Source of the DNA: Promethearchaeota archaeon
GTDB lineage: Archaea; Asgardarchaeota; Lokiarchaeia; Sigyniarchaeales; SOKP01
Direction of reading: 5' to 3'
NCBI GenBank assembly: GCA_011364925.1
Contig: RDOA01000039.1
Location: forward strand, 1-37,096
Length of the DNA: 37,096 nucleotides
The position numbers were made by a program, and so were the translations under genes. Position 1 is the first letter of the stretch; the number at the start of each line of letters is the position of its first letter. The notes under the pieces were generated by a model. It was not told the origin of the DNA. It searched no databases and saw nothing but the letters and a program-made list of their open reading frames with translations. Positions 3,629 to 33,690 of the stretch are shown here, piece by piece.

Positions 3629-4927
3629 GTGGTTCTTATGCCTAATAAACGAAAGCTTTCTGAAATAAGGAGTAAAATTAAGAATGGCACTGCGAATGTT
3701 ATTACAGTTCAAGAATTTATCACGCGAATAAAAGATGGAGAACCCGTCAAGTTCGAGGATGTTGATGTAATTACTACTGCCACCAAAGGTTTGATGAGTG
3801 GAATAATGGGAGTTTTCTCGTTCAGACTAAGTCTACCAAAAACTAATCGGAAATTTACTGAAATAAGTATGAATGGTATATCTGCATTTCCAGGTCCTTG
3901 TCCAAACGAGTATCTAGGAATTGCAGATCTTATCGTTTATGGAACTGCTCAAAGCCAAACAAGAGAACATTACTGTGGAGGGTCCCTATTTAGAGAACTT
4001 GTTGAAGGTAAACCTATTGAAGTTATTGCTAAAAGTAGTGAAGGAGAAGTAATCGAAAGAATATTAACTTTAGAAGATATGCAATATGCGAATTTAATGG
4101 GAACTAGACAAGCTATAAAGAATTACAATGCCATGCTTAACTGTGAATCGTACCAAGTAGATACAATATTTTCCTGCCTTCCATTTGAACCTGATAAATC
4201 ACAACTTACCTTTTCTGGATGTGGAGCTCTAAATCCGTTCCAAAACGATCCTGAATTTCAATCTTTCGGTGTAGGTACTCCACTTCTTGTAAATGGAGCT
4301 ATAGGGTATCTTATAGGACCGGGAACCCGTAACTACATCGAAAAACCTAACATGATGACAATAGCTCCAATGAGTCAGATGAGTCCAGAATATATGGGTG
4401 CATTTAAAACTTCTTATGGAGTTGAACCAATTTGCTCGATCGCCGTTCCTATTCCTATTCTTAACGAAAAAATATTTAATAATGTAGTTAAATCTGATAA
4501 AGATGTAAAACTGAAGATATTAAGTCTAGTTGGGAGAGAAAAAGTAGGAGAAATAACATATGGAGATGTCTGGGATAATAATTTTGTTATGAAATTCAAT
4601 CCTGATGCGTGTAAAAAAGGGTATGAATGTAAAGTTATTGGTAAATGCCCAACAGATGCTTTCATAATAAAAGATGAACTCATTGTCGCTATTGATAGAT
4701 CACGATGTTTCAATTGTGGTAACTGTGCCTGGTTGTGCCCAGAAGCCTTTAAATTAGATCTCAAATCAATCTCTTTTGAAAGTAATAATATTCCAGTCGT
4801 TTTAAGGCAATCAGACCGCGCTGGTGCAATCCTTTTAGCTGAACAGTTAAAACAAATGATCCTCAACGAAGAATTCCCACTGAAAAAGCCTACTGGAGAA
4901 CTAGATTTTGCAGAAAGCATCAAATAG
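3629..4927 (+). CDS. Methanogenesis marker 16-like metalloprotein (DUF39/homocysteine-biosynthesis sulfur-incorporation family with a C-terminal ferredoxin domain)
   Basis: DVDVITTATKGLMSG, NG..AFPGPCPNE.LG, SGCGALNPFQNDP, GTPLLVNGAIGYLIGPGTR; CFNCGNC...CP Fe-S motif. Confidence 0.8.
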   Translation: MVLMPNKRKLSEIRSKIKNGTANVITVQEFITRIKDGEPVKFEDVDVITTATKGLMSGIMGVFSFRLSLPKTNRKFTEISMNGISAFPGPCPNEYLGIADLIVYGTAQSQTREHYCGGSLFRELVEGKPIEVIAKSSEGEVIERILTLEDMQYANLMGTRQAIKNYNAMLNCESYQVDTIFSCLPFEPDKSQLTFSGCGALNPFQNDPEFQSFGVGTPLLVNGAIGYLIGPGTRNYIEKPNMMTIAPMSQMSPEYMGAFKTSYGVEPICSIAVPIPILNEKIFNNVVKSDKDVKLKILSLVGREKVGEITYGDVWDNNFVMKFNPDACKKGYECKVIGKCPTDAFIIKDELIVAIDRSRCFNCGNCAWLCPEAFKLDLKSISFESNNIPVVLRQSDRAGAILLAEQLKQMILNEEFPLKKPTGELDFAESIK

Positions 4928-4949
4928 AGCGTGAAAAAAACACGCTTTT
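4928..4949 (+). terminator. Hairpin plus T-tract after the marker-16 gene
   Basis: AGCGTG-AAAAAAA-CACGCT-TTT immediately after the stop codon. Confidence 0.5.
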
Positions 4950-5003
4950 CCTAACTCTTAGCGTTCTAAAAAAGTTTATTTTTAATTTACAATACTTCAA
5001 TTT

Positions 5004-6746
5004 ATGTCTAAACAAAATATTGGTCCTATAGATGGTGGAGATCTAGTTGTTAAAAGCCTTCTTAAGGAGGGAATTACAAAGGTTTTTGGACTTGTTGGCG
5101 GAGAACTATTACGGATTTATGACGCTATAGAACGCTATGGCCGTGAAGAAGGTATTGATACTATTATGGTTCGCCACGAACAAGCCGCTGGACACATGGC
5201 AGATGCTTGGGCGAGGGCAACCGGTAAATTAGGAGTATGTTTAGGAACTGCGGGTCCTGGCGTCGCTCATCTCGTTCCAGCTGTAGCAGCGGCATGGGCA
5301 GATTCTATTCCACTTCTAGTAATAGGAGCGCAAATCGCTAGAATGTTTGATGACACAGGGATTCTCCAAGGCGGGTTAGATCAAATGAAATTAATGGAAC
5401 CGATCACTAAACTTCAAATTTCTGTCGAAGAACCCTATGAGATACCTAAAGCAATACAAAGAGCGATTAAAGCTGCAATGTCAGGCAGAAGAGGGCCTGT
5501 CTTTTTAGAATTTAGAGAAACTGCTTTAGTACGAAAAGCTAGTGAAGAAGACTTAAACAACATACTTGATCCTGAGCAATATAGACCTATTAATCGACCT
5601 GCTGGGAATTCAGATGAAATAAAAAAAGCAGTACAAATCCTAAAAACTGCCAAAAAGCCATTAATCATTGCTGGTGGGGGTGTTCACGCATCTGATGCGT
5701 CTAATGAATTAAAAAAATTATCAACCACTTATAAAATTCCTTGTGGTACATCTATTAATGGCGTTGGTACAATTGATGTTCGGACTGAAACTTATGTAGG
5801 TTCATATTTAGTCGCTAATGCATACAGAAAAGCAGTAGCTGAAGCTGATGTGGTCATATCTTTCGGTACTAAATGGGATTACACAATACTGTTTGGTGCT
5901 CCACCTATTTGGAATACAAATGCAAAAATAATCCAAAACGATATCGACCCAGAAATGATTGGAAGAAACCGAAAGGTTAGTGTGGCAATTATTGGGGACG
6001 CTAAAGCTGTAATCAACCAACTCCTTGCTGAAATGGAAACTTCACTCCCTAAAGATAAAATTACTCAATGGACGGAATGGAATATGTTTCTTACCGAAGT
6101 TAAGCAAAACGACGCTCTCGAGATTCAAAAATTGTTAAAATACAATAAATTACCTATGAAACCAGAAAGATTTGTATATGAAGTATTAGATTCAATAAAA
6201 CACGATTCTCAATTAGTAATTGACGGTGGCGATATTGCAGTTTTTACTTTTGGATTAATTAGCAATTTTCCGCGCGATCCAAGAACACTATACTTTCCAA
6301 TAACTATGGGGCATCTAGGAACAGGTATCCCGCATGCCATTGGTGCTCAAATTGCGAACCCAGATAAACAGGTTGTTGTAATAAACGGAGACGGTAGCTT
6401 TATGTTTAATGTTCAAGAACTAGATACAGCAGTGAGATTAAATCTACCAATAATCGTAATGATTGCTAACAACTGTGCGTGGGGCATGATAAAAAGCAAA
6501 CAAAAGGGAGAATTTAAGAAGAGATATTGCGATGTTGATTTGCCTCCAACTAATTACGCTGAAATTGCGAAAGGTTTTGGGTGTTACGGTGAAAAAATTG
6601 AAAACCCAGAGGATATCAAACCCGCCATCCAAAGAGCTATAGAATCTAAAAAACCAGCGGTTATAGATGTAGATATCGCTTTTGAAACTCCAATTGCCAT
6701 GAAAGTAATTGCAAATCTTAAAAAAAATCGAGGACTTTATGGCTAA
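5004..6746 (+). CDS. Thiamine pyrophosphate-dependent enzyme, acetolactate synthase large subunit-like
   Basis: RHEQAAGHMADAWAR, GPG, TPP motif GDGSFMF...NN. Confidence 0.9.
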   Translation: MSKQNIGPIDGGDLVVKSLLKEGITKVFGLVGGELLRIYDAIERYGREEGIDTIMVRHEQAAGHMADAWARATGKLGVCLGTAGPGVAHLVPAVAAAWADSIPLLVIGAQIARMFDDTGILQGGLDQMKLMEPITKLQISVEEPYEIPKAIQRAIKAAMSGRRGPVFLEFRETALVRKASEEDLNNILDPEQYRPINRPAGNSDEIKKAVQILKTAKKPLIIAGGGVHASDASNELKKLSTTYKIPCGTSINGVGTIDVRTETYVGSYLVANAYRKAVAEADVVISFGTKWDYTILFGAPPIWNTNAKIIQNDIDPEMIGRNRKVSVAIIGDAKAVINQLLAEMETSLPKDKITQWTEWNMFLTEVKQNDALEIQKLLKYNKLPMKPERFVYEVLDSIKHDSQLVIDGGDIAVFTFGLISNFPRDPRTLYFPITMGHLGTGIPHAIGAQIANPDKQVVVINGDGSFMFNVQELDTAVRLNLPIIVMIANNCAWGMIKSKQKGEFKKRYCDVDLPPTNYAEIAKGFGCYGEKIENPEDIKPAIQRAIESKKPAVIDVDIAFETPIAMKVIANLKKNRGLYG

Positions 6747-6834
6747 TTATTTTACAATTTTCTTTTTATTCAACTTCTTTTCAATTTGAAATAACTTATT
6801 AGGTATTTATTTTAAAAAAGAAAGGGAAGTAAGT

Positions 6835-6883
6835 AGTGTTCAATTGGAGAGCTTCATAATAAAGCACTCTAATAATAAACACC
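6835..6883 (-). other. Conserved 3' stem-loop of mini-gene copy 1
   Basis: Minus strand: GGTGTT...AGAGTGCTTT-ATTAT-GAAGCTCT...AACACT, then TTCCCTTTCTTTTTT. Confidence 0.6.
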
Positions 6884-6886
6884 AAA

Positions 6887-6916
6887 TTACGGATTTATAG
6901 AACCTTGACCGGGCAA
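6887..6916 (-). CDS. Nonapeptide micro-ORF copy 1 (MPGQGSINP, TTG start)
   Basis: AGGTGAT-GGTT-TTG CCC GGT CAA GGT TCT ATA AAT CCG TAA; same length and SD spacing as the three other copies. Confidence 0.7.
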   Translation of the reverse strand: MPGQGSINP

Positions 6917-7012
6917 AACCATCACCTTTTATATAAATTCGATTTACATTGTCGTAAATCCTAAGAAAAGTTAGAGTTTTTTCATCCTTTTCATTTTATT
7001 TTATTCATTACT

Positions 7013-7026
7013 TATTTAAACTTCGA
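7013..7026 (-). promoter_or_regulatory. Putative promoter of mini-gene copy 1
   Basis: Minus strand TCG-AAG-TTTAAATA, shared with the other copies. Confidence 0.55.
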
Positions 7027-7188
7027 TGTTTCTTTTTAAATCAATTAAAATAAGGGAGTAAAATTCTAAATTAAAATATCAGAAAACTTTATATCTAATT
7101 AAATTTAAATTATCTAGGTGAAACTGCCGAACTCTAAATATATCTGTAAACTAACCAGAGTTAAATACGAGAATTATTAAGAACAATT

Positions 7189-8397
7189 CTAGTTTAAGTC
7201 AGAAGGTAGAATTGGATTAACAAGCAAACTTTTATATTCTTTTATAGATGGAATTTTGCCATATTTTTTTCTTAAAATGTTTGTTCCGAGATAATATAAA
7301 AAAGCATTTTTCGAGTAAACAGGATTTAATATCCTTTCAATTTCGTTTTTTAATTGTTCTTCGCTAAAAAGACCAATACCTTTTCCAAATTGAACGAGTT
7401 CCTCCTCGTTATATTTGTCTACTAAAGCGTGATAGGCAAAATTGTACCAAAAAACAGAAATTTTAGCTTTAATTTCGTCTTGTAATATCAATATTTCAAG
7501 AGGGACTTCTTTTGATATATCTGGACAAAATTCTCTTAAAGAAATTTCTGCAGATTCAATGTTTGAAAAGAGAATTGAATTGGCTAATTTCGCAATTCCT
7601 TCTGAAATAATCATCTGAGGAGAATGGATAATCAATATTGATTGCTCAAAGTGATTTAACTCGTGATATAACATTTGTTCTTTTACAGAGAATTCCGTGT
7701 GATGCCCTGGATATCCTTCATGACTAGCAGCTGATAGAAATGCAGTCCAATACATGTCATATTTTGGGTTGAGTTCAATTCTGGATTTGTAATTACCTTG
7801 ATACCAGTTATAGAAAGACCACTTTAAATTGTAATTTGATTGTTCGACCAAATCAATAGAAATCTGCTCTTCTTTAGGTAAGAGATTGGGGAGTATTTTT
7901 TTAGTCTGTTTTCTCACAATGTTCAATGCTTTTTGAAACATAGTGAAGACTTGCGCTTCGGGAACTCTTCGCGTCAGTCTTAAATTAGCCATATGCTCTG
8001 TTATGTTCCCAGGACCTTCATATGCTTCATTAATTTCCTCTTTTAAGTTTTTTAACTCTATCTCATAAGCTGGATCTAAATTTACATCATAAAGTTTTAA
8101 AAATTGGTCTTTTATTGAATAATCGATTCCATTTAACATTTCTATCGATGTTTTCATAGAGGTTATAATTTTTTCAAGGAACCGTTCTCGTTTAAGGTCA
8201 TAACCTTGAGATTGTAAATGTTGTATCAAAGCTCTTGAATCTTTTAATAATCTAATAGGTGCCATTGGAAACTCACTTTCTACGATTTTTCTTAGATTTT
8301 CTGGTCCATAATAAAAATCAACATAACCTTTAATATGCTTATTAATCCGGAGTGCTAATAGTAAATAATCTTCTTCAAATTTGGAAAGTTTTATCAT
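7189..8397 (-). CDS. DUF885-like putative zinc metallopeptidase, paralog A
   Basis: HEGYPGHHTE motif, downstream SEGIA (third ligand), N-terminal YLLLALR...GYVDFYYGP. Confidence 0.75.
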   Translation of the reverse strand: MIKLSKFEEDYLLLALRINKHIKGYVDFYYGPENLRKIVESEFPMAPIRLLKDSRALIQHLQSQGYDLKRERFLEKIITSMKTSIEMLNGIDYSIKDQFLKLYDVNLDPAYEIELKNLKEEINEAYEGPGNITEHMANLRLTRRVPEAQVFTMFQKALNIVRKQTKKILPNLLPKEEQISIDLVEQSNYNLKWSFYNWYQGNYKSRIELNPKYDMYWTAFLSAASHEGYPGHHTEFSVKEQMLYHELNHFEQSILIIHSPQMIISEGIAKLANSILFSNIESAEISLREFCPDISKEVPLEILILQDEIKAKISVFWYNFAYHALVDKYNEEELVQFGKGIGLFSEEQLKNEIERILNPVYSKNAFLYYLGTNILRKKYGKIPSIKEYKSLLVNPILPSDLN

Positions 8398-8584
8398 ATT
8401 GATTTAACATAATAATTATTTTATAAGGAGTTGATCTAAAAATCAACAATTTTAAGAAAATTTAAATGAATCTTTTTTTTACAAATTAATTTAACTTTAA
8501 AATAAACATTTAATTCAATGTTTAATACATCTAATTCAAAATCTCTAATTTTAATTTCTCACAATAACTAAAAGGTGTTTTAAA

Positions 8585-9391
8585 ATGTCGGAAGATAAAT
8601 TTTTAAAAGGAAAGGTAGCTCTAATAACCGGCGCTGGTAGTGGATTTGGCCAAAAAATGGCTATCGCATATGCCGTGAAAGGAGCCGATTTGGTTTTAAA
8701 CGATATTAACGAAGATGGTCTCGAAGAGACACGTAATTTAGTTCTGGAACAATACAATTCTAAAATTCTCTTAGTTAAAGCTGATGTTTCAAACTCCAAA
8801 GAAGTTGAAGAAATGGCTAAAAAGACATTTGAAACTTTTGATAATGTATTTGTGTTAGTGAATAATGCTGGAATAGACGGTGGACTTTATACTGCTTTGA
8901 AAGCCAAAGAGTCTGTATACGATAAAGTGTTTGCCGTTAATGTTAAAGGTCCGTTGAACGTTACTAAAGCGTTCTTTCGGAATATGAAGCGACAGAAGCA
9001 GTTCCAACCAATAGCTGGTAAAATTATAAACATTGCTTCAGTTGCGGGAACTCCAAATGGTCATAATCCGATGCTCGGAATTTATAGCGCAAGTAAAGCG
9101 GCATTAATAGCGTTTACGAAACTATGGGCTCTTGAATTAGGAAAAAGCAACATAACTGTTAACGCTATAAGTCCTGGTGTCTTTCTTACGCCTATCTATA
9201 ATAACGATCCTAAATTAATTCGCCAATTTCTTGAGACAAGAAATGTAAAAATACCAATTGATAGGATCGGTGAGGCAGAATGGGTCGCTGACTTAGCAGT
9301 GTTCTTAGCATCTTCAACAGCAGATTACATCACTGGACAAAACTTCATTATAGACGGTGGAATGAGTATATCAGTCAACAAGCTAAATTAA
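8585..9391 (+). CDS. Short-chain dehydrogenase/reductase (FabG-like)
   Basis: TGAGSGFG, NNAG, YSASK, NAISPG, ITGQ...DGG. Confidence 0.92.
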   Translation: MSEDKFLKGKVALITGAGSGFGQKMAIAYAVKGADLVLNDINEDGLEETRNLVLEQYNSKILLVKADVSNSKEVEEMAKKTFETFDNVFVLVNNAGIDGGLYTALKAKESVYDKVFAVNVKGPLNVTKAFFRNMKRQKQFQPIAGKIINIASVAGTPNGHNPMLGIYSASKAALIAFTKLWALELGKSNITVNAISPGVFLTPIYNNDPKLIRQFLETRNVKIPIDRIGEAEWVADLAVFLASSTADYITGQNFIIDGGMSISVNKLN

Positions 9392-9447
9392 TCTTATGAT
9401 ATCTTTTATTATTCTATAACATTTCTAAAAAAAGAAAAGAAAGTAAG

Positions 9448-9493
9448 TGGTAGGCTTATACGGAGCATTCCTATGCTCTTATAAGTAGTACCA
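9448..9493 (-). other. Conserved 3' stem-loop of mini-gene copy 2
   Basis: TGGTA/TACCA, CTTATA/TATAAG, GAGCAT-AGGA-ATGCTC, followed by a U-rich tract. Confidence 0.7.
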
Positions 9494-9495
9494 AA

Positions 9496-9525
9496 TTACG
9501 GACAAATACCATTTTCGCCTGGCAT
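9496..9525 (-). CDS. Nonapeptide micro-ORF copy 2 (MPGENGICP)
   Basis: GGAGTGAT-TAAA-ATG CCA GGC GAA AAT GGT ATT TGT CCG TAA. Confidence 0.75.
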   Translation of the reverse strand: MPGENGICP

Positions 9526-9633
9526 TTTAATCACTCCATTAGATTTTAAAAATATAAATATATCTATCTAAAATATGAGATTTTTGAACTCAGTTTCCAG
9601 TTTTTTCTCACTTATCTTGTGTATTAAATTGAT

Positions 9634-9650
9634 TATTTAAAATCCGAAAA
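9634..9650 (-). promoter_or_regulatory. Putative promoter of mini-gene copy 2
   Basis: Minus strand TTTTCG-GAT-TTTAAATA. Confidence 0.6.
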
Positions 9651-9704
9651 TATTTGAAAAAAGATACTCTTGATGTTTTTTCTTAAAAAAGAAAGAGAAA
9701 TAAG

Positions 9705-9749
9705 GGTGTATATATTAAGAGTCTCAATATAGATTACTCTTATAACACC
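9705..9749 (-). other. Conserved 3' stem-loop of mini-gene copy 3
   Basis: GGTGT/ACACC and TAAGAGT/ACTCTTA stems, followed by a U-rich tract. Confidence 0.65.
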
Positions 9750-9752
9750 GAA

Positions 9753-9782
9753 TTAAGGCAATGTACCATTGTCTCCTGGCAA
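9753..9782 (-). CDS. Nonapeptide micro-ORF copy 3 (MPGDNGTLP, TTG start)
   Basis: GGATTGAT-TAAT-TTG CCA GGA GAC AAT GGT ACA TTG CCT TAA. Confidence 0.72.
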   Translation of the reverse strand: MPGDNGTLP

Positions 9783-9887
9783 ATTAATCAATCCTTCTAA
9801 ATTTTGAGAAATTTCTTTTCTGTCTTAAATGAATTTAAATATTCTATAGTGTTTTTTTTTACAGTCATTAATATGATTCAAAATAAA

Positions 9888-9904
9888 TATTTAAAATACG
9901 AAAA
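9888..9904 (-). promoter_or_regulatory. Putative promoter of mini-gene copy 3
   Basis: Minus strand TTTTCG-TAT-TTTAAATA. Confidence 0.6.
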
Positions 9905-10077
9905 TGTAGTGTGAGAAAGTTATACAATTTTTCACTATATTTAAATTCCAGTATTAATAGAAGGATGAAAAATTTTGAAATTTTACATTAAATCAGAGAG
10001 TAAAGTTGGATTAATACATAAATTAATAAAATTTTTTAATGAGTATTTTTTAGAGTAAAAAAAAGAAAGGAAAATAA

Positions 10078-10130
10078 TTGTTTAGCTTAAGAAGAGCATT
10101 CAGACAAATAGCTCTCATAAGCAGCACCAA
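10078..10130 (-). other. Conserved 3' stem-loop of mini-gene copy 4
   Basis: GCTTA/TAAGC and AGAGC/GCTCT stems, followed by a U-rich tract. Confidence 0.65.
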
Positions 10131-10131
10131 T

Positions 10132-10161
10132 TTAGGGGTTAGTACCAGGTTCTCCAGGCAT
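10132..10161 (-). CDS. Nonapeptide micro-ORF copy 4 (MPGEPGTNP)
   Basis: GGAGTGAT-TAAA-ATG CCT GGA GAA CCT GGT ACT AAC CCC TAA. Confidence 0.75.
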   Translation of the reverse strand: MPGEPGTNP

Positions 10162-10273
10162 TTTAATCACTCCTTTCATATATTAAAAATCATGAATCTA
10201 TTCTTCTCTTTTATATATTGTTTAGTGTAGGCATTCCTGTTTTTTCTTCACTAATAGTAAGATTAAAATTGAT

Positions 10274-10290
10274 TATTTAAACTACGAAAA
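10274..10290 (-). promoter_or_regulatory. Putative promoter of mini-gene copy 4
   Basis: Minus strand TTTTCG-TAG-TTTAAATA. Confidence 0.6.
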
Positions 10291-10342
10291 TAACGTAACA
10301 GTCTTTAATAAAAATGTTGAACTCAGGTTTTGAATATTAATA

Positions 10343-11554
10343 TTACAACAAATCAGAGGGTAAGATCGGTTTAATCAAAAGATTTCTAAAATTATTAGCT
10401 GATGGAAATTCCCCGTATTTATTTTTGATCATATTCATTCCGAGATTATATGTAAAAACATTTTTCGAGTAGACAGGATCTTTAAGGGCTCTAATTTGGT
10501 TTACAAGTAGATCTTCATTAAAGAGCTCATGACTTTTGCCGTAATTAATTAATTTAGCATCAGTGTAATTATCAATGAGTGCATGATATGCAAAATTATA
10601 CCAAAAAAGTGAAATCTTGTGTTTTACGCTATATTGTCCAATCATAGTTTCAATCGAATCTTCATCAAAAATATTTGGACAAAACTCATTCAATCCAATT
10701 TCTACCTGATCTCTATAAGAAAAGAGCACATTTACAGCAATATCTGCTATACCTTCACTTATTATTAATTTAGGAGAATTTAGGAGCAAAATTGAGTGTT
10801 CAAATTGATTTAATTCTCTACACAATTTTAATTCTTTAACGACAAACTCTGTGTGGTGACCTGGATACCCCTCATGAGCAGAATGCATAAGTAAATTAGT
10901 CCAATACATATGAAATCTCGGATTAACTTCGATTCGACTCTTATAATTACCTAAGTACCAATCATAACAAGTCCATTTTATACTGTCCTTGTCTGTTTCT
11001 TCTGTTATTTCTAAAAATATTTCTTCATTTTCAGGTAAGAGATTGCTAAATAATTCCTTTGTGCGTTTTTCTACGATATCGAGTGCTTTTTTAAAAAATT
11101 CATAAACTTTTTCTTCGGGAACTCTTCTTTTAATTCTTAATTTTTTAATGCGTTCTTCAAGATTTCCATTACTACCGTGAGCATCTGCATATTCTCTTTT
11201 TAAGTTATCCAGTTCTGTTTCATTCGCTGGTTGTAATGTAACATCATAAATCTTTAAAAATTGATTTTCAATAGAAATATTGGAACCGTTTAAAATTTCA
11301 ATAGAGGTTTTCATAGCTATTAATAATTTCTTTAGATAGCACTCGCGTTCTTTATCATAACCTTGTGATCCTAATTGTTTAATTAAAGAAATTGAATCTT
11401 TTAACAATTTACTCGGCGATGTAAGAGGTTCAGTTTGAACAATTTGACTAAGTTTCTCTGGTCCATAATAGAAATCAATATAACCCTTAAAATGTCTATT
11501 AATTCTCAAGGCCAATAGTAGAAATTCTTCCCCAAAACATGATAGTTTTACCAT
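10343..11554 (-). CDS. DUF885-like putative zinc metallopeptidase, paralog B
   Basis: HEGYPGHHTE and SEGIA; colinear with 7189..8397 from the N-terminus to the C-terminal PILPSDL. Confidence 0.75.
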   Translation of the reverse strand: MVKLSCFGEEFLLLALRINRHFKGYIDFYYGPEKLSQIVQTEPLTSPSKLLKDSISLIKQLGSQGYDKERECYLKKLLIAMKTSIEILNGSNISIENQFLKIYDVTLQPANETELDNLKREYADAHGSNGNLEERIKKLRIKRRVPEEKVYEFFKKALDIVEKRTKELFSNLLPENEEIFLEITEETDKDSIKWTCYDWYLGNYKSRIEVNPRFHMYWTNLLMHSAHEGYPGHHTEFVVKELKLCRELNQFEHSILLLNSPKLIISEGIADIAVNVLFSYRDQVEIGLNEFCPNIFDEDSIETMIGQYSVKHKISLFWYNFAYHALIDNYTDAKLINYGKSHELFNEDLLVNQIRALKDPVYSKNVFTYNLGMNMIKNKYGEFPSANNFRNLLIKPILPSDLL

Positions 11555-17659: not shown

Positions 17660-20600
17660 TTGACGCATATAAAGAAAATCTCGATGACCGGATTCAAATC
17701 ATTTGGTGATCGTACCGTTACTTTGCGGCTCTCCTCAGGGTTTACATGTATCGTTGGTCCTAACGGGGCTGGTAAATCAAATATTATTGATGCGTTAACA
17801 TTCGCATTAGGTCGACTAAGTAAAAAAACGATGAGAGCCAAAAGTCTCGAAGATTTGATTTTTGCTGGCTCTCGAGGTAAAAATCCTTCAAATAGGGCCT
17901 CGGTTACTTTATACTTCGATAATTCAGATAAAGTATTTCCAGGTGGAACTGATACTTTTGAAGTAACTCGGACAATTCAAAGAGGTGGGGGCGGAGGTTA
18001 TAAAATGAATGGAAAGAATGCTACACGACAACAGATCCTTAATGCCCTCGCAGCTGCAAACATTGATCCTGACGGTAGCAACCAATTCGTTTTGCAAGGG
18101 AAAATTGTTGAGATGACTCACATGAATCCCGAATCTCGTAGAATTTTTATTGAAGAGCTTATAGGACTTCAGAAGTACGACGAAATGAAGGATGCAACAA
18201 TGAAGGAGTTAGAAAAAGCAGAACGAGACCTCGGGCAATTTGAAGCTATTTTTAAAGAGGTGTCAGCCCAATTAAAGAAAGTGGAAAAGGAAAAGAACGA
18301 TGCTTTAGCTTGGAAGGAATTAGATGAAAAGATTAAACTATATAATGCTCAATTAATTGCTTTGAAGATTGAAAAATTAAGAAAAGAAGAAAATGAATTA
18401 GAAGCAAAAATAGAAGAAACTAACGCAGCTATAGAAGAATTACAAGAAAAAATAACAAGACAAGAAGAAATCTTAAAACAAGAATCATTAGTAATGGATA
18501 ATATTCAGAAAACTATATCTGAAAAAGAAAGAGAGAGAGAATTAATCAATGAAGGCATTACTCAACTTAAAACGCAACAATCCTCAAATCAAACCTCGTT
18601 AAACATAGCAAATAAATCAATTGATAAGATTTCACAAGAAATAAAAACACTAGAAAATCTTCAAATGGTTCTCGAAGAAGGCCAAACCTATGATTCTTTA
18701 ATCGAATCAGAATTAAAAATTGTTACTGATACGGAGAATCAAATTGAGGGCGCTAAAGGTGAAATAGAAAGTAAGCAACAGAAACAAGCTGAAATCGATG
18801 TTAACATAAAAAATAACAGCGATACTCAATCGGGTTATAAAGGAGAGATTTCTACAATCAAACAGAATATCTCTTCGAATAAAGCTCAAATAAAAGTTCT
18901 AAAAGAAAATATAAAAAAAAATGAAGAGAAGAAAAAGAAGTTAGAAATAGAACTTAGTAGGTTAAAAGGGGAATCTGAAAGCGTTGAAGAAGCTGTAAAA
19001 AATACAAATCAGGAAGCTGAATTAATAAGAAAAGAAATTAGCAATTTAAATATAAATATCTCAAAAGAAAACGATAATCAACAAGAATTAGAAAAATTAA
19101 TAAGCGGTTTAAGAGAAGAAAACAATCTTCTAAATTCAAAAATAGCAGATCTTAACTCTACATTATCCTCTCTAAATACTGAAATCTCTATGAATACAAA
19201 TAGAATAGAAAAGTTAAAATCTAGTAAAGTAGAAACAGAGAATAAGATTAAAGAATTGAGTAAAGGAAAAGATACAGAAGAAGCTTTAAAAGAATTATTA
19301 AAAGAAAGAGAATCCTTCGTTCATGATATTAATAAGTTTAAAACTCAAATAAAAGAAGAAGATTCTAATTATAGAAAAAATGAACAAGAATTAGAATTAT
19401 TACTAATGAAACAAGATTCTGTTGAATCAGAAATCAATGATAATAAGACAAAAATAGATAATATCAATACCAAATTAAAATTATTAAAAAGAGAACTTAC
19501 AAATCTTGAAAGAGAAAAACGCGATCTAGATTTAAAATCGTCCACATTAAGCGAAAGTTTAACAACGGCAGAAAATGAATCACAAAAACTTAATACGAAA
19601 AAACAAAACATTCAAAGACGGATGGGAGAACTTACTACGGAAAAAGATAATTTAACCGTTAAAATCGAAAATACAGAAAAAGAATATAATCAAAATACGG
19701 AAGATATTACAGGAATTCTTCAGATTTTGAACATGTTGACTCAGAACATCAATATATCCGTTGAATCGATAAAAAGTAACATCCAACAATCAAACGCTGA
19801 GGCTATTGAAACATCTGCAACCAATTTTAAGCAATTCGTCCTTGACATAGTCGATATCATGAAAACCGTCGAAGACGTTTCTGCGGAAGCTGAAGCAGAA
19901 GAAAAAACCGAAACTTCTGAGGTATCAGAAACCCTCAAATCAATTCTTCAAACTTTAACGCTATTTACAGAGAATGTCGATACAACGATTGATCAATTAA
20001 TAGATGGCGTAAAAGAATCCGCAGACATAGAGATACAACAATCTACTTCCACATTTGACAGTTTCGTTCAAGATTTAATGGAAATATTAGAAAACGTCTA
20101 CCTCTCTTTAAGGAAGTTAACGATGTCAAAATCTCAAGAGTTGTATAAACAGCTTGAAGAAATCACAGAAAATATCAATTCTCAGAATAATGACTTGAAC
20201 ATCATTGATCAAGATTTAACACGAATAAATACCCAAAACAAACACGATTCAGAAGATTTGGCTACGAACGCAAGGAGATTAGAAGAAGTTATTAAAAGAA
20301 TTAGTGAGATAAATGAAAAAGTTGAAAAATCTGAAAGCGAAATTGAACAGAGAAATAAGTTGATAATTGAAAGACAAAAAGAAAATTTCAAGGCTGATAT
20401 CGAAAGTTTTAAACAAAAAAAAGAAGAATATTGGAATACAGTCTCTAAAATTAAAGAAGAAATGGATATAAAACAAAAAGGTTTAGACGATTTACAAATA
20501 AAACTGCAAGAACTTCAAGGAATTCAGACTTTTTACGAGAAAATATTAGAGATTGAAAAGAACGTACAAGAGTTAAGTGCTGCTATTGACGATAAGAAAA

Positions 20601-22126
20601 ATGTAATAGTCAACACAGAAGAAAACATCAAAAAGATTAAACTTGAACAAGATGGTCTAAATACAGAGATTGAGAGTAAAATAACGGAAAAAAATAATTT
20701 TTGGGAAAATACTGAAAAACTACGGGCACAAATCGACGAACAAAATAAGAAACTAGAAGTTACTATGGATAAATTAAGAGCTCTCGAAAATGTTATGATG
20801 ATAATCAATTCAATTGATGAACTATCGAAAGAAAATGTCGAAGCAAATACAAGTATTAGCCAATCCAATAATGATATAGAAAACCTAAACTCTCAAGTGG
20901 AAGAAAAACAAAAGAAAGTTGATGAAGTAGAGGTAATAATAGACTCTTTGAGAGAAGAAAAAGACAAAGAGTTAGAGGCACAAAAGAAAGCACAAAAAGA
21001 GTTAAATAAACTAAATAAAGACCTTCAAAAATCTCAATCAAAACTGAACGAATTGAATAAAAATAAGGAAAGAGAACAAAAAATTATTTCGCTAAATGAT
21101 GATATAAAAACCACTGAAAAACAAATCGAGTCCATATTAAAAGATATCGAGAAAATTGAACTTGAACTGAAACAAGAAGATGCTAAAAAGAACATCAAAC
21201 AAGAAGAAATCAATAAAGAAATTCAAGGAAAGGATTTATCGTGGAAAAAGCAGAAGAACTATCAAAAACAAATCAATGATCTAAAAGCAGATCACTCGAT
21301 GGAAAATTCTAAATTAAATAACTTTGAATCTAAAAAGATCATCACAACTGACCAAATCGAAACCCTATATCAACGATCTAAAGATTATGGCGCTTTACCC
21401 CCAGTTACTGACGATTTGTCTGAATCAGGACTGCAATCAGATATCTCTACTGCTGATAACAAGAAAAAAGCCCTAGAACCCGTTAATCTAAAGGCTATTA
21501 AGCAATATGATACCGTAAAAGAACGATTTGATGAAATTGATATGAGAAGACAAACGATACAGAGGGAAAGAAAATCAATCCTTGACGCAATCGAAAAAAT
21601 CGAGCTGGAAAAAACTCGGACGTTCATGAAAGCGTATCACGAAATCAATCGAGAATTTGCCCGTCTATTCCAAAAACTCTCCCCTGGAGGCTCTGCTAAA
21701 ATGATTCTAGATCGCCCAGACAAGCCGTTTGAGGGTGGCGTAAGTATCGAAGCTCGACCCCGTGGAAAAAAAATCAGCAGCCTCGAAATCCTCAGTGGAG
21801 GAGAGAAAACGCTCGTGGCTCTCTCGTTCATCTTCTCGGTGGAAGAGTTTATGCCAAGCCCTTTTTATATTTTAGACGAGATCGATGCGGCCCTCGATGG
21901 TCCCAACGTCCACAGAGTTTCCATGCTCTTAAAGGACTTTGCGCATCAAGCGCAATTTTTAGTGATTAGTCATCGCGAGGAGAATATCGTGAACGCGGAT
22001 CGGATTTATGGGGTGACGATGCAGCAGTCGGGCATTACGGACATATTTAGCGTGGACTTAGAGGAGGAGGCGAAGCGGTTATTGGAGTTACCGGACGTAG
22101 AGCCTCAGGTGGGGGACAATATTTAA
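17660..22126 (+). CDS. smc: Chromosome segregation ATPase SMC, unusually long and with no recognisable hinge
   Basis: GFKSF, GPNGAGKSN, Q-loop LQG, LSGGE, LDEIDAALD, ISH; long coiled coils; scpA and scpB nearby. Confidence 0.9.
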   Translation: MTHIKKISMTGFKSFGDRTVTLRLSSGFTCIVGPNGAGKSNIIDALTFALGRLSKKTMRAKSLEDLIFAGSRGKNPSNRASVTLYFDNSDKVFPGGTDTFEVTRTIQRGGGGGYKMNGKNATRQQILNALAAANIDPDGSNQFVLQGKIVEMTHMNPESRRIFIEELIGLQKYDEMKDATMKELEKAERDLGQFEAIFKEVSAQLKKVEKEKNDALAWKELDEKIKLYNAQLIALKIEKLRKEENELEAKIEETNAAIEELQEKITRQEEILKQESLVMDNIQKTISEKERERELINEGITQLKTQQSSNQTSLNIANKSIDKISQEIKTLENLQMVLEEGQTYDSLIESELKIVTDTENQIEGAKGEIESKQQKQAEIDVNIKNNSDTQSGYKGEISTIKQNISSNKAQIKVLKENIKKNEEKKKKLEIELSRLKGESESVEEAVKNTNQEAELIRKEISNLNINISKENDNQQELEKLISGLREENNLLNSKIADLNSTLSSLNTEISMNTNRIEKLKSSKVETENKIKELSKGKDTEEALKELLKERESFVHDINKFKTQIKEEDSNYRKNEQELELLLMKQDSVESEINDNKTKIDNINTKLKLLKRELTNLEREKRDLDLKSSTLSESLTTAENESQKLNTKKQNIQRRMGELTTEKDNLTVKIENTEKEYNQNTEDITGILQILNMLTQNINISVESIKSNIQQSNAEAIETSATNFKQFVLDIVDIMKTVEDVSAEAEAEEKTETSEVSETLKSILQTLTLFTENVDTTIDQLIDGVKESADIEIQQSTSTFDSFVQDLMEILENVYLSLRKLTMSKSQELYKQLEEITENINSQNNDLNIIDQDLTRINTQNKHDSEDLATNARRLEEVIKRISEINEKVEKSESEIEQRNKLIIERQKENFKADIESFKQKKEEYWNTVSKIKEEMDIKQKGLDDLQIKLQELQGIQTFYEKILEIEKNVQELSAAIDDKKNVIVNTEENIKKIKLEQDGLNTEIESKITEKNNFWENTEKLRAQIDEQNKKLEVTMDKLRALENVMMIINSIDELSKENVEANTSISQSNNDIENLNSQVEEKQKKVDEVEVIIDSLREEKDKELEAQKKAQKELNKLNKDLQKSQSKLNELNKNKEREQKIISLNDDIKTTEKQIESILKDIEKIELELKQEDAKKNIKQEEINKEIQGKDLSWKKQKNYQKQINDLKADHSMENSKLNNFESKKIITTDQIETLYQRSKDYGALPPVTDDLSESGLQSDISTADNKKKALEPVNLKAIKQYDTVKERFDEIDMRRQTIQRERKSILDAIEKIELEKTRTFMKAYHEINREFARLFQKLSPGGSAKMILDRPDKPFEGGVSIEARPRGKKISSLEILSGGEKTLVALSFIFSVEEFMPSPFYILDEIDAALDGPNVHRVSMLLKDFAHQAQFLVISHREENIVNADRIYGVTMQQSGITDIFSVDLEEEAKRLLELPDVEPQVGDNI

Positions 22127-24725: not shown

Positions 24726-25577
24726 TTGAACGAAAATCACGAAAAGGAACCAGAAGATCAATTGGAAATTAAAGCCAATGAAGAAACACCGTTGGATGGA
24801 GCCGTTGATGACCTTCCTCAAGAGGAAGGCAATTTAGAAGGGAGTGAGACACTTTCAGAGACTGAAAAAATAATTGAAGAAGAGGAAGAGGATATCGAAG
24901 GAATAATTGAAGAAGAAATTGCTATTGAGGAAGAAGAATCATTGAGTTCCGACTCGTTAGAAGAAGAAGAAGGTGAAAACGATACTGAATCTGTTGGAGA
25001 TGAAGAAGTGGAACCTCAAGTACTTCAGGAACTCACAAAAGAAGACTTAGAATTACAACTAAAAATTCTAAGGAGAAATTTAATAGAAGGTGCTCTTTAT
25101 GCAGCTGGTAGACCTTTAGATGTGGAAGAATTATCAACGAAATTAGAAATCCCTAAAAAAGAAGTCGAAGAACTCGTAAGAGTTGTTGCTTTTGACTATT
25201 TAGAGCGTGAAGGTGCTTTGATTGTTGCCCAAATTGGAGAAAAGTATCAAATGCAGCTTAGACCTGAACTTACCGAGACGGTTTCTAAATTTGCAAAAGG
25301 TGGCGCAATCGCAGAACGCTATTTAAGAACGCTTACTCTTATTGCGTTAAAGCAGCCTATTTTAAAGTCCACAATCATTAAATTAAGAGGAACTGGTGCT
25401 TACGAGCATATAAAATATTTATTAGATAACGATCTAATTTCAGCGGAAAAAAAGGGAAGATCTGCTGAATTAACTACTACAGATAAATACTCCGACATGT
25501 TTGGATTGCCTAAAAATAAGCAAGAATTGAAAAGAATGATGATTTCCCAGTTAGGATTGGGGGAAAATAACGAATAA
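24726..25577 (+). CDS. scpB: SMC-Scp complex subunit ScpB with a long acidic N-terminal tail
   Basis: IEGALYAAGRPL, LRTLTLIALKQPI, RGTGAYEHI, TT.KY...FGL. Confidence 0.9.
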   Translation: MNENHEKEPEDQLEIKANEETPLDGAVDDLPQEEGNLEGSETLSETEKIIEEEEEDIEGIIEEEIAIEEEESLSSDSLEEEEGENDTESVGDEEVEPQVLQELTKEDLELQLKILRRNLIEGALYAAGRPLDVEELSTKLEIPKKEVEELVRVVAFDYLEREGALIVAQIGEKYQMQLRPELTETVSKFAKGGAIAERYLRTLTLIALKQPILKSTIIKLRGTGAYEHIKYLLDNDLISAEKKGRSAELTTTDKYSDMFGLPKNKQELKRMMISQLGLGENNE

Positions 25578-31779: not shown

Positions 31780-32622
31780 TTAGTTAAGGATTAAGACTTC
31801 ATCGATTAATCCTCTCTTCTGGGAAATGCTATTTATATTTCGCTTCGCTTTCAAGGTCACAATTCTATAATCTTTATACAAATCTAATATGAACTCAGAA
31901 TAGGAATTATTAAGAATAATATAACAGCCTTTCTTATCAAGTTCTTTAAACACATCAAATAATTTTTTCTGCGATGTTTTATCGAAATTACTTTTAGTAT
32001 AACTTGTAAATAGAGCAGTTTCAGAGAGTGGGTGATAAGGAGGGTCTAGGTATACAAAATCACCTTGTTTAGCAAAGTTTAAACACAGTTCAAAAGAACC
32101 TAAATATATCTCAACATTTCTTAAAGCTCGACTAACTCTTCTTAAATTTACATCGTCACATATCTTTGGGTTTCTATGTCTTCCAAAAGGAACGTTAAAG
32201 AATCCCTTACTATTAACCCGATATAATCCGTTATATCCACTTTTGTTAAGATAAATTGTTCGGGAAGCTTTCTCAACATCAGAAAGTTGTGCAAATCCAT
32301 TACGATCCCGGTCGAGAGCTCGAACTTTATAATAATAATTTTTCTCATATGTGTGTTTTCTTAGAGATTTTATTAAATTCTCCACATCCTCTTTTATAAC
32401 CTTGTAACAATTTATCAAATCAGGATTATTGTCTGATATAATTGAAATTTCTGGTAATAAGTGGAAGAAAATAGCTCCTCCACCAATAAAAGGTTCTATA
32501 TATTTATTATAATTTTTAGGAAAATATTTAGCCATTTGTGGAATTAATTGCCTTTTACCCCCAGCCCATTTTAAGAAAGGATGTGGTAGAATATTTTGTG
32601 TCAATTTTCCTCCTAAGTTCAA
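31780..32622 (-). CDS. Dam-like N6-adenine DNA methyltransferase
   Basis: LKWAGGK, EPFIGGGA, NGLYRVN..G.FNVPFG, YLDPPY. Confidence 0.92.
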   Translation of the reverse strand: MNLGGKLTQNILPHPFLKWAGGKRQLIPQMAKYFPKNYNKYIEPFIGGGAIFFHLLPEISIISDNNPDLINCYKVIKEDVENLIKSLRKHTYEKNYYYKVRALDRDRNGFAQLSDVEKASRTIYLNKSGYNGLYRVNSKGFFNVPFGRHRNPKICDDVNLRRVSRALRNVEIYLGSFELCLNFAKQGDFVYLDPPYHPLSETALFTSYTKSNFDKTSQKKLFDVFKELDKKGCYIILNNSYSEFILDLYKDYRIVTLKAKRNINSISQKRGLIDEVLILN

Positions 32623-32730
32623 AATATTTTTTGTACAGTTTATACTATATAAAAATATAGATTAAAAATTAACAATTACTATAACCATAAATAAATTAAA
32701 TTTAGAATCCTTATTCCAGTCGACTTTAAA

Positions 32731-33672
32731 ATGATAGATAAGCAAAAATTTGAGGAGCTGTTTAACAAACAACTTATCAAGGATATCTCTGAGGAACAAA
32801 TTGATATAGTTCTATCTGGACAATATGGCAAAGCTTTAGAATTACTCAGGGACGCAGAAGCAACAGGATTATTCCCGGCGCTTGTAGGACCACCAGGAGT
32901 TGGAAAAACTATTTTATGTCGTTATTTTGCTAGATTGAGAGCTGAAGAAAACAAAAATAAGAATTTTCATTGGTTAACGATGGACGAATCTATAAAACCT
33001 AGTCACTTTATCGGTAGTTTTGATCCGGCTATAACATTGAAAAAAGGCTTTGTGCTAGAAGCATTCAATCCTGGCCCTCTTTTAAGAGCAATGTTAGAGG
33101 GTGGGACATTTTTAGCGAATGAAATAAATCGAGCAACCGAATACTCTCAGAATACATTATTAGAACCATTAGAAGAAGCATCAATTAGCATACCTCATTT
33201 AGGGAGAATTAGAGCAGATAAAGACTTTTTTTTCATATCTGCGATGAATCCAGAGGAACTTTCAGGCACTCATAGGTTATCTGAGGCATTAAAGGATAGA
33301 ATTAAAGTTTGGATTAAATTATCATATCCCGATAAAGCAACTGAGCTCGATATAATAAGAATTAATCTACCAGAACATTTTATTATTGAAGAATCCGAAT
33401 TGGAGTTGATTTATTCGATTATAAACGAGACAAGGAGAAATAAAATAGACATCGAAGTCCCTGCGTCTATTAGAGCTGGCATAGCGATTGCTAAACTACT
33501 AGCACATAGAAGAATGCTTGAGAAAAAAGCCGATATAAAGGAAGGGACATCCATCCATAAATACCTTTCAGAAATTACCCAAAATGTATTATTAGGAAGT
33601 ATTAAACCTAAACCGGGAATAAAAGTTGAAAACATAATCGATAATATTATCCATAAAACGTTAGGTGCCTAG
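32731..33672 (+). CDS. MoxR-like AAA+ ATPase
   Basis: GPPGVGKT, PGPL..AM..G, ANEINR, AMNP, LSEALKDR. Confidence 0.88.
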   Translation: MIDKQKFEELFNKQLIKDISEEQIDIVLSGQYGKALELLRDAEATGLFPALVGPPGVGKTILCRYFARLRAEENKNKNFHWLTMDESIKPSHFIGSFDPAITLKKGFVLEAFNPGPLLRAMLEGGTFLANEINRATEYSQNTLLEPLEEASISIPHLGRIRADKDFFFISAMNPEELSGTHRLSEALKDRIKVWIKLSYPDKATELDIIRINLPEHFIIEESELELIYSIINETRRNKIDIEVPASIRAGIAIAKLLAHRRMLEKKADIKEGTSIHKYLSEITQNVLLGSIKPKPGIKVENIIDNIIHKTLGA

Positions 33673-33690
33673 GAGGTAAATGGAAGGTTT

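Follow-up and report, generated by a model that had tools for sequence, protein, structure and literature searches.

Nonapeptide mini-genes beside DUF885-like peptidases and a regulator-transporter locus point to a possible peptide-signalling circuit in an Asgard archaeal family

Results

Four nonapeptide units accompany two peptidase genes

The stretch of DNA analysed here (the window) comprises 37,096 nt of contig RDOA01000039.1 from a Promethearchaeota archaeon. Its minus strand carries two peptidase genes, each followed by one or more genes of only nine codons (Table 1). The order along the strand is peptidase B, peptide copies 4, 3 and 2, an SDR oxidoreductase gene on the opposite strand, peptidase A and peptide copy 1. 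This is the layout given in the original prediction, and all four of its minus-strand units, with TATA box, Shine-Dalgarno (SD) site, nine-codon ORF, TAA, hairpin and U-tract, were recovered at the positions it had named. A TTTAAATA box lies 104-120 nt 5' of the start codon in each of the four units, and 4 nt 5' of every start is an SD-like site (GGAGTGAT, GGTGAT or, for copy 3, the weaker GGATTGAT) complementary to the 16S 3' end taken from the same genome. Every stop codon is followed by a hairpin of 45-60 nt and then a U-tract, again in all four units. An ATG in frame with copy 1, at 6922, lies across the SD-like site and is a less likely start than the TTG.

The homology of the units spans roughly 220 nt and takes in their non-coding parts. 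The decayed C-terminal remnant of a third enzyme copy sits between copies 4 and 3; it was not part of the original prediction and records a tandem duplication of the cassette. In relatives, the SDR gene lies directly 3' of the ThDP-enzyme gene, so cassette A lies within this SDR/ThDP cluster.

Table 1. Features of the peptidase-peptide locus, in minus-strand order.
Feature	Position	Strand	Remarks
Peptidase B	10343-11554	-	403 aa; HEGYPGHH at residues 227-234, third ligand Glu267; pLDDT 96
TATA-like box, unit 4	10274-10281	-	62 nt past peptidase B stop; putative promoter of its own
Peptide gene copy 4	10132-10161	-	ATG start, 9 codons, MPGEPGTNP, ends Pro-TAA
Hairpin and U-tract, unit 4	10057-10132	-	z -3.27; terminator-like
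Enzyme remnant (third copy)	9983-10057	-	~24 codons and stop; E 8.2e-6
TATA-like box, unit 3	9888-9895	-	
Peptide gene copy 3	9753-9782	-	TTG start, MPGDNGTLP, ends Pro-TAA
Hairpin and U-tract, unit 3	9685-9749	-	z -3.30
TATA-like box, unit 2	9634-9641	-	
Peptide gene copy 2	9496-9525	-	ATG start, MPGENGICP, ends Pro-TAA
Hairpin and U-tract, unit 2	9427-9499	-	z -3.59; directed into convergent SDR gene
SDR oxidoreductase	8585-9391	+	bystander
Peptidase A	7189-8397	-	402 aa; same intact motif at residues 226-233, Glu266
TATA-like box, unit 1	7013-7020	-	
Peptide gene copy 1	6887-6916	-	TTG start, MPGQGSINP, ends Pro-TAA
Hairpin and U-tract, unit 1	6813-6890	-	z -4.68; directed into convergent ThDP-enzyme gene

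The nine-codon ORFs exceed chance and vary synonymously

The 3.9 Mb genome holds 11 strict copies of the peptide gene, against 0.27 expected and 0-1 in shuffled sequence. When length was left free, 11 of the 16 nine-codon ORFs opening with start-Pro-Gly terminated in Pro, compared with 5 of 114 ORFs of other lengths. At codons 2, 3 and 9 the first two positions hardly vary, preserving Pro2, Gly3 and Pro9, whereas the third positions take all four bases at codons 3 and 9 and three bases at codon 2. Identical peptides are specified by differing DNA, and the reading frame is conserved across unrelated hairpin families. Because the variation is synonymous, function appears to lie at the level of the peptide; judged from the sequence, the four ORFs in the window are real genes.

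Up to 18 nine-codon genes occur per genome. The fixed PG...P scaffold originally proposed describes one subclade and does not extend to the wider family, where His occurs at position 3, lengths run from 8 to 14 residues and some peptides continue briefly past the last Pro. Across the family the C-terminal Pro alone is near-invariant, and most enzyme-linked peptides terminate at it. A looser DNA pattern has a background of 0-3 chance matches per genome. Rejected matches included one at 22006-22035 of the window (antisense of an SMC gene end) and three in genome G167 (inside a long ORF); a single bacterial match (L153; GC-rich, ~550 nt upstream, non-recurrent) was taken as chance.

The enzymes are predicted DUF885-like gluzincins

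Peptidases A and B share 55% identity, keep the metal motif intact and are predicted to be cytoplasmic gluzincins; a signal peptide and a TM segment were looked for in peptidase B and none was found. H227, E228, H233/H234 and E267 are kept in at least 90% of alignment rows, the gluzincin pattern of two His ligands and a catalytic Glu on one helix with a third-ligand Glu further along, and the motif is intact throughout the clade enzymes. Tyr217, Gln307 and Tyr323 are specific to the clade and are candidate determinants of the binding pocket. The nearest folds are DUF885 structures (PF05960; PDB 3IUK, 3O0Y, 3U24), with Z scores of 22.3, 21.0 and 20.6 over 338-362 aligned residues and Foldseek E values of 1e-6 to 6e-4, and these share the HExxPGH motif and downstream Glu. 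However, the window enzymes score 18.7 and 15.4 bits against PF05960, whose gathering cut-off is 32.4, are 12-14% identical to the DUF885 structures, are shorter (~400 versus ~550 aa) and have no signal or lipoprotein peptide. The family assignment originally made thus stands for the fold (Z 22) and for HEGYPGHH with its downstream Glu, but the scores fall below the Pfam cut-off, so the enzymes are DUF885-like only.

The next folds are M32 and MATCAP, and the nearest folds of known function are carboxypeptidases and oligopeptidases. M32 carboxypeptidases, M3 oligopeptidases and MATCAP/TMCP share the gluzincin fold (Z 12-14.5), and the His motif of MATCAP is also lengthened (PMC10499314); the motif here, HExxxxH(H), is nonetheless longer than HExxH or HExxxH, and identity is 8-13%. 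Sequence searches seeded by the enzyme alignment returned nothing relevant from PDB or NCBIfam, matches to OGT being rejected as short helical look-alikes.

Peptide genes recur behind the enzymes of two subclades

The coupling of peptides to peptidases that the original prediction proposed recurs in other genomes, and it survives the co-occurrence check by which that prediction had said it could be refuted. In two Loki subclades, 56 of the 58 enzymes with flanking DNA have a peptide gene directly 3', and in one whole subclade the two genes lie tail-to-tail. The exceptions are two clade enzymes of G008, which have a different small ORF in place of the peptide gene. None of the basal Asgard and bacterial homologs examined has an adjoining downstream peptide gene, and close single-copy enzyme homologs without any peptide gene exist. 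Gene neighbourhoods therefore give the coupling strong support within these subclades. In quick IQ-TREE and FastTree trees, the two peptide-linked subclades were joined with support 88 in one and had no firm join in the other. Enzymes and peptides covary weakly (Mantel rho 0.12, p 0.03), which may be simple co-descent.

Cassettes number 1-10 per genome, are patchily distributed and are inserted at varied housekeeping loci, and several different peptides can follow a single enzyme. Retention is asymmetric: clade enzymes almost never lack a peptide, while orphan peptide genes adjoin decayed enzyme tails and are conserved between species. Four genomes that are 95-100% complete (G013, G014, G017 and G220) have peptide genes, and the enzyme was not found in them. 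The peptidase is the one candidate modifying enzyme that recurs, with no recurring tailoring gene found near the cassettes; MoxR/vWA, a DUF7064 protein, GT4 and an epimerase beside orphan peptide genes were set aside as variable or as insertion-site markers.

A second locus places the peptide family between a regulator and a transporter

Members of the family occur in a second context, flanked on one side by the gene of a 1,200-aa pseudo-zincin/Lrp regulator and on the other by that of an MFS transporter. Near-complete genomes for which no peptidase was found show this arrangement too. Nearly all genomes of the archaeal family (117 of 135) encode the regulator. Among the best 30 regulator loci, the peptide gene lies just 5' of the regulator gene in 21, the adjoining arrangement of RRNPP and LCP systems, and is divergent from it in 20; at the other 9 it was not seen. 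An MFS gene is kept 3' of the peptide gene even where it is a 25%-identity replacement.

The modelled regulator has an N-terminal zincin-like domain without His ligands, an HTH and Lrp/AsnC modules. Residues 205-370 match NirDL (Z 12.7) and AsnC, LrpC and PF0864 (Z 6-7), consistent with an HTH followed by a ferredoxin-like RAM domain, and residues 3-139 match SPRTN/selecase zincins (Z 7.2 and 6.2) with LREAY replacing HExxH; all of these matches except NirDL have Z below 8. The sequence has no Pfam match and no PDB sequence match, Foldseek matches to AcrB were rejected (TM <0.1), and no TPR family was found among the Pfam matches of either peptide-linked protein, enzyme or regulator. From this arrangement, the regulator is likely the receptor of the peptide, and the MFS protein likely its transporter or a regulated target.

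Regulator-linked and enzyme-linked peptides of the same genome match at positions 6-8(+10), with a score of 24 versus 15.2 when permuted (p 1.4e-4) in a test that was prompted by eye and whose 10 genomes are kin. In the genome studied here, residues 6-9 of copy 2 are those of the regulator-linked peptide (contig C70, 47600-47629). Recent copying does not account for the match: synonymous differences separate 39 of the 54 shared codons, with no relationship between the 3' flanks.

Discussion

Each unit reads as a stand-alone mini transcription unit for a peptide of 8-14 (mostly 9) residues ending at or near the conserved Pro. Met aminopeptidase removes a Met that precedes Pro, and the product would be a Pro...Pro octapeptide, a poor substrate for most exopeptidases. 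At the core locus, where one peptide gene is observed beside the divergent regulator and MFS genes, this peptide could act as a signal. The window cassettes would encode active cytoplasmic oligo- or carboxypeptidases binding peptides of this class by their C-terminal half, cleaving the signal and so damping or resetting the regulator, while the co-encoded peptides would occupy or inhibit their own enzyme. Such antagonism would in turn lead the cassettes to duplicate, hop and accumulate. We give this reading, a leaderless peptide-signal circuit in a single Lokiarchaeial family, its signal degraded or gated by mobile peptidase-peptide cassettes, about an even chance (roughly 0.5). Counting against it are the polarity of the peptides and their lack of an export signal, the weak enzyme-peptide covariation, the two G008 enzymes with another small ORF, and a nearly universal regulator whose peptide gene was not seen at 9 of the best 30 loci. 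The further step to cell-to-cell signalling in archaea, built from non-RRNPP parts (leaderless Pro-capped nonapeptides, a dead-zincin/Lrp receptor and socially selected, accumulating peptidase-inhibitor cassettes), is a more tentative proposal.

Parallels exist in bacteria. Leaderless communication peptides (LCPs) of Firmicutes, such as SIP of the SIP/RopB pair, are hydrophobic signals of 8-9 residues encoded divergently from their receptor (PMC10518010). Here too an ultra-small ORF yields an 8-10 residue peptide without signal or leader, divergent from a gene for a cytoplasmic transcription regulator and sometimes with a transporter gene downstream. Unlike LCPs, these peptides are polar and Pro-capped, the candidate receptor is modelled as a pseudo-zincin with multiple Lrp modules, apparently in place of an HTH-TPR (RRNPP) protein, the host is an archaeon, and many additional peptide genes are tied to peptidases. 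The logic of accumulation resembles that of the Rap-Phr cassettes of Bacillus (PMC4771773), in which a small gene for the cognate peptide, under a promoter of its own, likewise directly follows the enzyme gene and each genome carries many paralogous mobile cassettes. The enzyme here is, however, a gluzincin rather than a TPR phosphatase, and inhibition by the peptide is a supposition. As ORFs of 8-14 codons without a hydrophobic leader, the peptide genes also have neither the signal sequence nor the processing site of classical RRNPP propeptides (Phr, PapR, SHP).

The original prediction left the peptides as substrates, RiPP-like precursors, inhibitors or signals. The regulator-peptide-MFS locus favours a signal or inhibitor. 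The precursor option is weakened; in it the enzyme would cyclise the nonapeptide, trim its N-terminus or cut C-terminal extensions back to Pro, and the variable core would serve as a library. Cyanobactins, MSDIN/amatoxins and orbitides are Pro-terminated RiPPs with a hypervariable core, and the cassettes share with them fixed ends around such a core and several different precursors per enzyme; C-terminal extensions past Pro in some members would suit trimming by a carboxypeptidase, the class of the nearest functional folds. Yet the peptides total nine residues with neither leader nor follower, without which ring closure by a zinc hydrolase has no energy source, and no serine-protease macrocyclase or recurring tailoring gene accompanies them. 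Most enzyme-linked peptides are already Pro-terminated, and the peptide persists in the four 95-100% complete genomes where the enzyme was not found. We consider RiPP maturation less likely than the signal circuit, and unlikely overall.

That enzymes decay first and peptides remain, in patchy, mobile, multi-copy cassettes at varied housekeeping loci, would also fit a selfish toxin-antitoxin-like element, the regulator locus being a separate use. The peptidase would then harm a host protein, for instance by MATCAP-like clipping of its C-terminus, with the Pro-ended peptide as the antidote, much as ACE-type gluzincins are inhibited by peptides with a C-terminal Pro. We regard this as rather improbable: it leaves unexplained why enzyme-linked and regulator-linked peptides match within a genome, why one enzyme can have several different peptides and why orphan peptide genes are conserved across species, and close single-copy enzyme homologs without a peptide gene speak against it. 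Stalling at Pro-stop, known from TnaC, raises the prospect of an attenuator without a diffusible peptide, in which a stalled ribosome controls read-through at the hairpin. In copies 1 and 2 the hairpin does start at the stop codon or overlap it, and regulator-linked copies lie 5' of a co-oriented MFS gene, but copies 1 and 2 are directed into convergent genes, every tandem copy has a separate TATA box, a whole subclade has the tail-to-tail arrangement, and the peptidase linkage goes unexplained; we think little of its chances. Least probable by far is that a structured RNA or promoter repeat is the conserved element and the ORF incidental. Homology over non-coding parts of the ~220 nt unit would suit it; the synonymous third positions, the same peptide from differing DNA and the frame kept across unrelated hairpin families do not.

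Within the library searched, we found no account of these peptide cassettes, peptidase-linked or regulator-linked, and none of Asgard archaea signalling by peptides; among the DUF885 papers listed, no title or abstract names a substrate. The nonapeptide genes with a peptidase, and with a regulator and transporter, in one Asgard family point to a possible, previously undescribed archaeal peptide-signalling circuit. Genes of nine codons fall under annotation length limits, yet are under selection here. If the signalling reading is true, the peptides would be the first natural ligand for a DUF885-like enzyme, and dozens of natural enzyme-peptide and regulator-peptide pairs offer cheap matched reagents for which culture is not needed. 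Two questions thereby become accessible: what DUF885-like gluzincins target, and whether diversified peptide signals, and peptidases dedicated to them, are in use among the archaea related to eukaryotes.

Structure and selection of the peptide mini-genes

Four minus-strand units had been proposed from the sequence, and all of their elements (box, SD-like site, 9-codon ORF, hairpin and U-tract) are present in each. The TTTAAATA box lies 104–120 nt upstream of the start, the SD-like site matches the 16S tail of the same genome, and every ORF ends in Pro-TAA ahead of the hairpin (z −3.3 to −4.7) and U-tract. The host genome (3.9 Mb, 33% GC, 100% complete), of which the window forms contig C49, holds 11 strict copies (start-Pro-Gly...Pro ORFs of nine codons) versus 0–1 in shuffles. 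Beyond these, a variant peptide gene lies on contig C34 behind the most distant enzyme paralog, and a peptide gene is found downstream of all five enzyme paralogs of this genome.

Because Pro2, Gly3 and Pro9 were built into the search pattern, their constancy is partly circular. Independent of the pattern are the length excess (11/16 versus 5/114), the free third codon positions, the identical peptides encoded by different DNA, and the members without any Pro-Gly that were located by their position behind an enzyme (L017, L065 and L195). Judged by these sequences, the gene structure is established and the peptide is under selection. A seeming fifth mini-ORF in the window was rejected because it runs antisense to the gene end that encodes the conserved C-terminus of SMC. 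One enzyme cassette (L065; G272, contig C137), with three convergent 10-codon peptide genes, is situated immediately behind an apparent rRNA gene stretch. An orphan on host contig C44 lies upstream of a 370-aa gene; the matching locus in G356 holds a tail-to-tail enzyme cassette (L239).

Coordinates of features in the host genome and one related locus
Feature	Location	Position	Strand
Peptide ORF, copy 1	window	6887-6916	-
Peptide ORF, copy 2	window	9496-9525	-
Peptide ORF, copy 3	window	9753-9782	-
Peptide ORF, copy 4	window	10132-10161	-
Enzyme A	window	7189-8397	-
Enzyme B	window	10343-11554	-
SDR	window	8585-9391	+
HcyBio/DUF39-ferredoxin, ThDP enzyme, SDR cluster	window	3629-9391	
SMC-like ATPase	window	17660-22126	
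Seeming fifth mini-ORF (rejected)	window	22006-22035	-
ScpB	window	24726-25577	
Dam-type methylase, MoxR AAA ATPase, vWA protein	window	31780-36183	
Orphan peptide gene	G000 C44	19034-19063	
Regulator-peptide-MFS locus (L207, L263)	G000 C70	46023-51522	
Peptide gene of that locus	G000 C70	47600-47629	
Stretch at a locus with the 36-codon ORF	G008 L093	5040-5200	

Enzymes and their linkage to the peptide

The two enzymes, A and B, share 55% identity, and neither a signal nor a membrane segment was found in either. Both retain HEGYPGHH and the downstream Glu, an intact metal site. Their assignment to DUF885 holds for the fold (model pLDDT 96; the nearest structures are three DUF885 entries, Z 20.6–22.3), while the Pfam score falls below the cut-off. 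M32 carboxypeptidases, oligoendopeptidase F, MATCAP, Dcp and ACE come next (Z 12–14.5). The closest relatives are Promethearchaeota (Lokiarchaeia) records. The wider family (1,248 representatives) mostly gives one match per genome across many Asgard lineages and includes Actinomycetota-rich clusters; no peptide gene of the nonapeptide kind was found beside the members examined in either group.

The predicted coupling of enzyme and peptide recurs in other genomes. In trees, peptide-linked enzymes form two subclades of one Loki family, in two genera: a co-oriented subclade with a downstream peptide gene in 44 of the 46 enzymes with flanks, and a tail-to-tail subclade with one in all 12. Among basal Loki-type enzymes the count was 0/13. 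Within the genus, strict-pattern matches, a few of which carry an internal stop, occur in 8/8 relatives with a close enzyme (3–18 each) versus 0/16 of the rest. Copy number reaches 10 enzymes per genome, and 18 peptide genes in one genome.

The cassettes are inserted between housekeeping genes, at sites that change. A decayed enzyme tail lies between copies 4 and 3 in the window (E 8e-6). G016 and G110 have similar tails, and G367 and G020 have weak ones adjoining orphan peptide genes. These remnants show that cassette duplication and then enzyme loss gave rise to the arrays and to some, at least, of the orphans. Core similarity tracks enzyme similarity weakly (rho 0.12). The two enzymes of the clade that lack a Pro-capped peptide are in G008, together with a third, broken copy (L093, L094 and L095). 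Each is followed tail-to-tail by a 36-codon signal-peptide-like hydrophobic ORF, which L094 has in truncated form and which may be a replacement partner.

A second linkage, to a regulator

Orphan peptide genes are repeatedly flanked by a divergent gene for a 1,200-aa protein on one side and a co-oriented MFS transporter gene on the other. The single such locus of the host genome, with a 1,204-aa regulator, is probably the core of the system. The regulator model (pLDDT 83) comprises an N-terminal zincin-like domain, an HTH and Lrp/AsnC modules, and LREAY replaces the metal motif, leaving a dead site. The regulator occurs in 117/135 genomes of the family, with a peptide gene of 8 to 14 codons just upstream in 21 of the 30 best loci. 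Several 95–100% complete genomes with a regulator-linked peptide gave no enzyme match, even by profile search, so the peptide appears independent of the enzyme. Cys is commoner in the regulator-linked peptides (6/16 versus 1/73).

Some loci depart from the usual form. L270 (G019, contig C52) has 11 codons and an apparent, non-canonical ATT start after a good SD; L252 and L253, from two genomes, carry one peptide in two lengths, 10 codons and 14 codons, the latter extended further at the C-terminus. A regulator-type copy recurs at L080, L082 and L208, where its neighbours are a DUF7064/DUF7065 protein and one of 455 aa that has no Pfam match.

In the C-terminal half, the regulator-linked peptide is closer to one of the enzyme-linked peptides of its own genome than its counterparts in other genomes are (24 versus 15.2; 10 genomes). 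The p value of 1.4e-4 overstates the match, as this was a post hoc test on related genomes. GICP, for example, is common to window copy 2 and the C70 peptide, the two G008 peptides are one residue apart, and those of G002 both carry a rare Lys extension. Recent copying is an unlikely source of the match, since 39/54 shared codons differ synonymously and the hairpins are unrelated. We treat both sets as one peptide family.

Surroundings of the window

The window also encodes rpl15e and RNase P p30. In relatives, a 147-aa gene, absent here, separates HcyBio/DUF39-ferredoxin from the ThDP enzyme, and the ThDP-SDR pair, split here by cassette A, is contiguous. The SMC-like ATPase (1,488 aa) is long for its family, with ScpB nearby. 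The site upstream of MoxR is often occupied elsewhere by a cassette or orphan peptide gene (L081, L103 and L183); neither was found there in the window. DATKTW01 (L001 and L007; G011), titled 'Candidatus Nanopelagicaceae bacterium', has genes 62–74% identical to the host's, in the same genus, and is probably a mislabelled Loki MAG.

Proposed function

Our literature search found no description of a nonapeptide-peptidase or regulator system. The closest in our comparison are leaderless communication peptides (PMC10518010) and Rap-Phr; unlike these, the present system has neither a propeptide nor a hydrophobic peptide, and the proteins linked to it have folds unrelated to theirs. By precursor anatomy, the genes are not RiPP.

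Enzyme and peptide probably interact physically in some way. Maturation of the peptide by the enzyme seems unlikely, an independent toxin-antidote cassette somewhat less likely still, and attenuation improbable. A peptide-signalling circuit, to which we give a probability of about one half, is the simplest account joining the enzyme and regulator contexts. In such a circuit the peptide would be translated, lose its Met, be exported and bind a receptor, the pseudo-zincin/Lrp protein, which would read it as a signal. The active peptidases would recognize the same C-terminal determinants, each travelling with a peptide that fits its pocket, and would repress the response until relieved by their own peptide. 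Two criteria have been described for the accumulation of extra quorum-sensing cassettes (PMC4771773). By analogy, an enzyme acting in this way would satisfy both, consistent with the copy-number pattern of the family.
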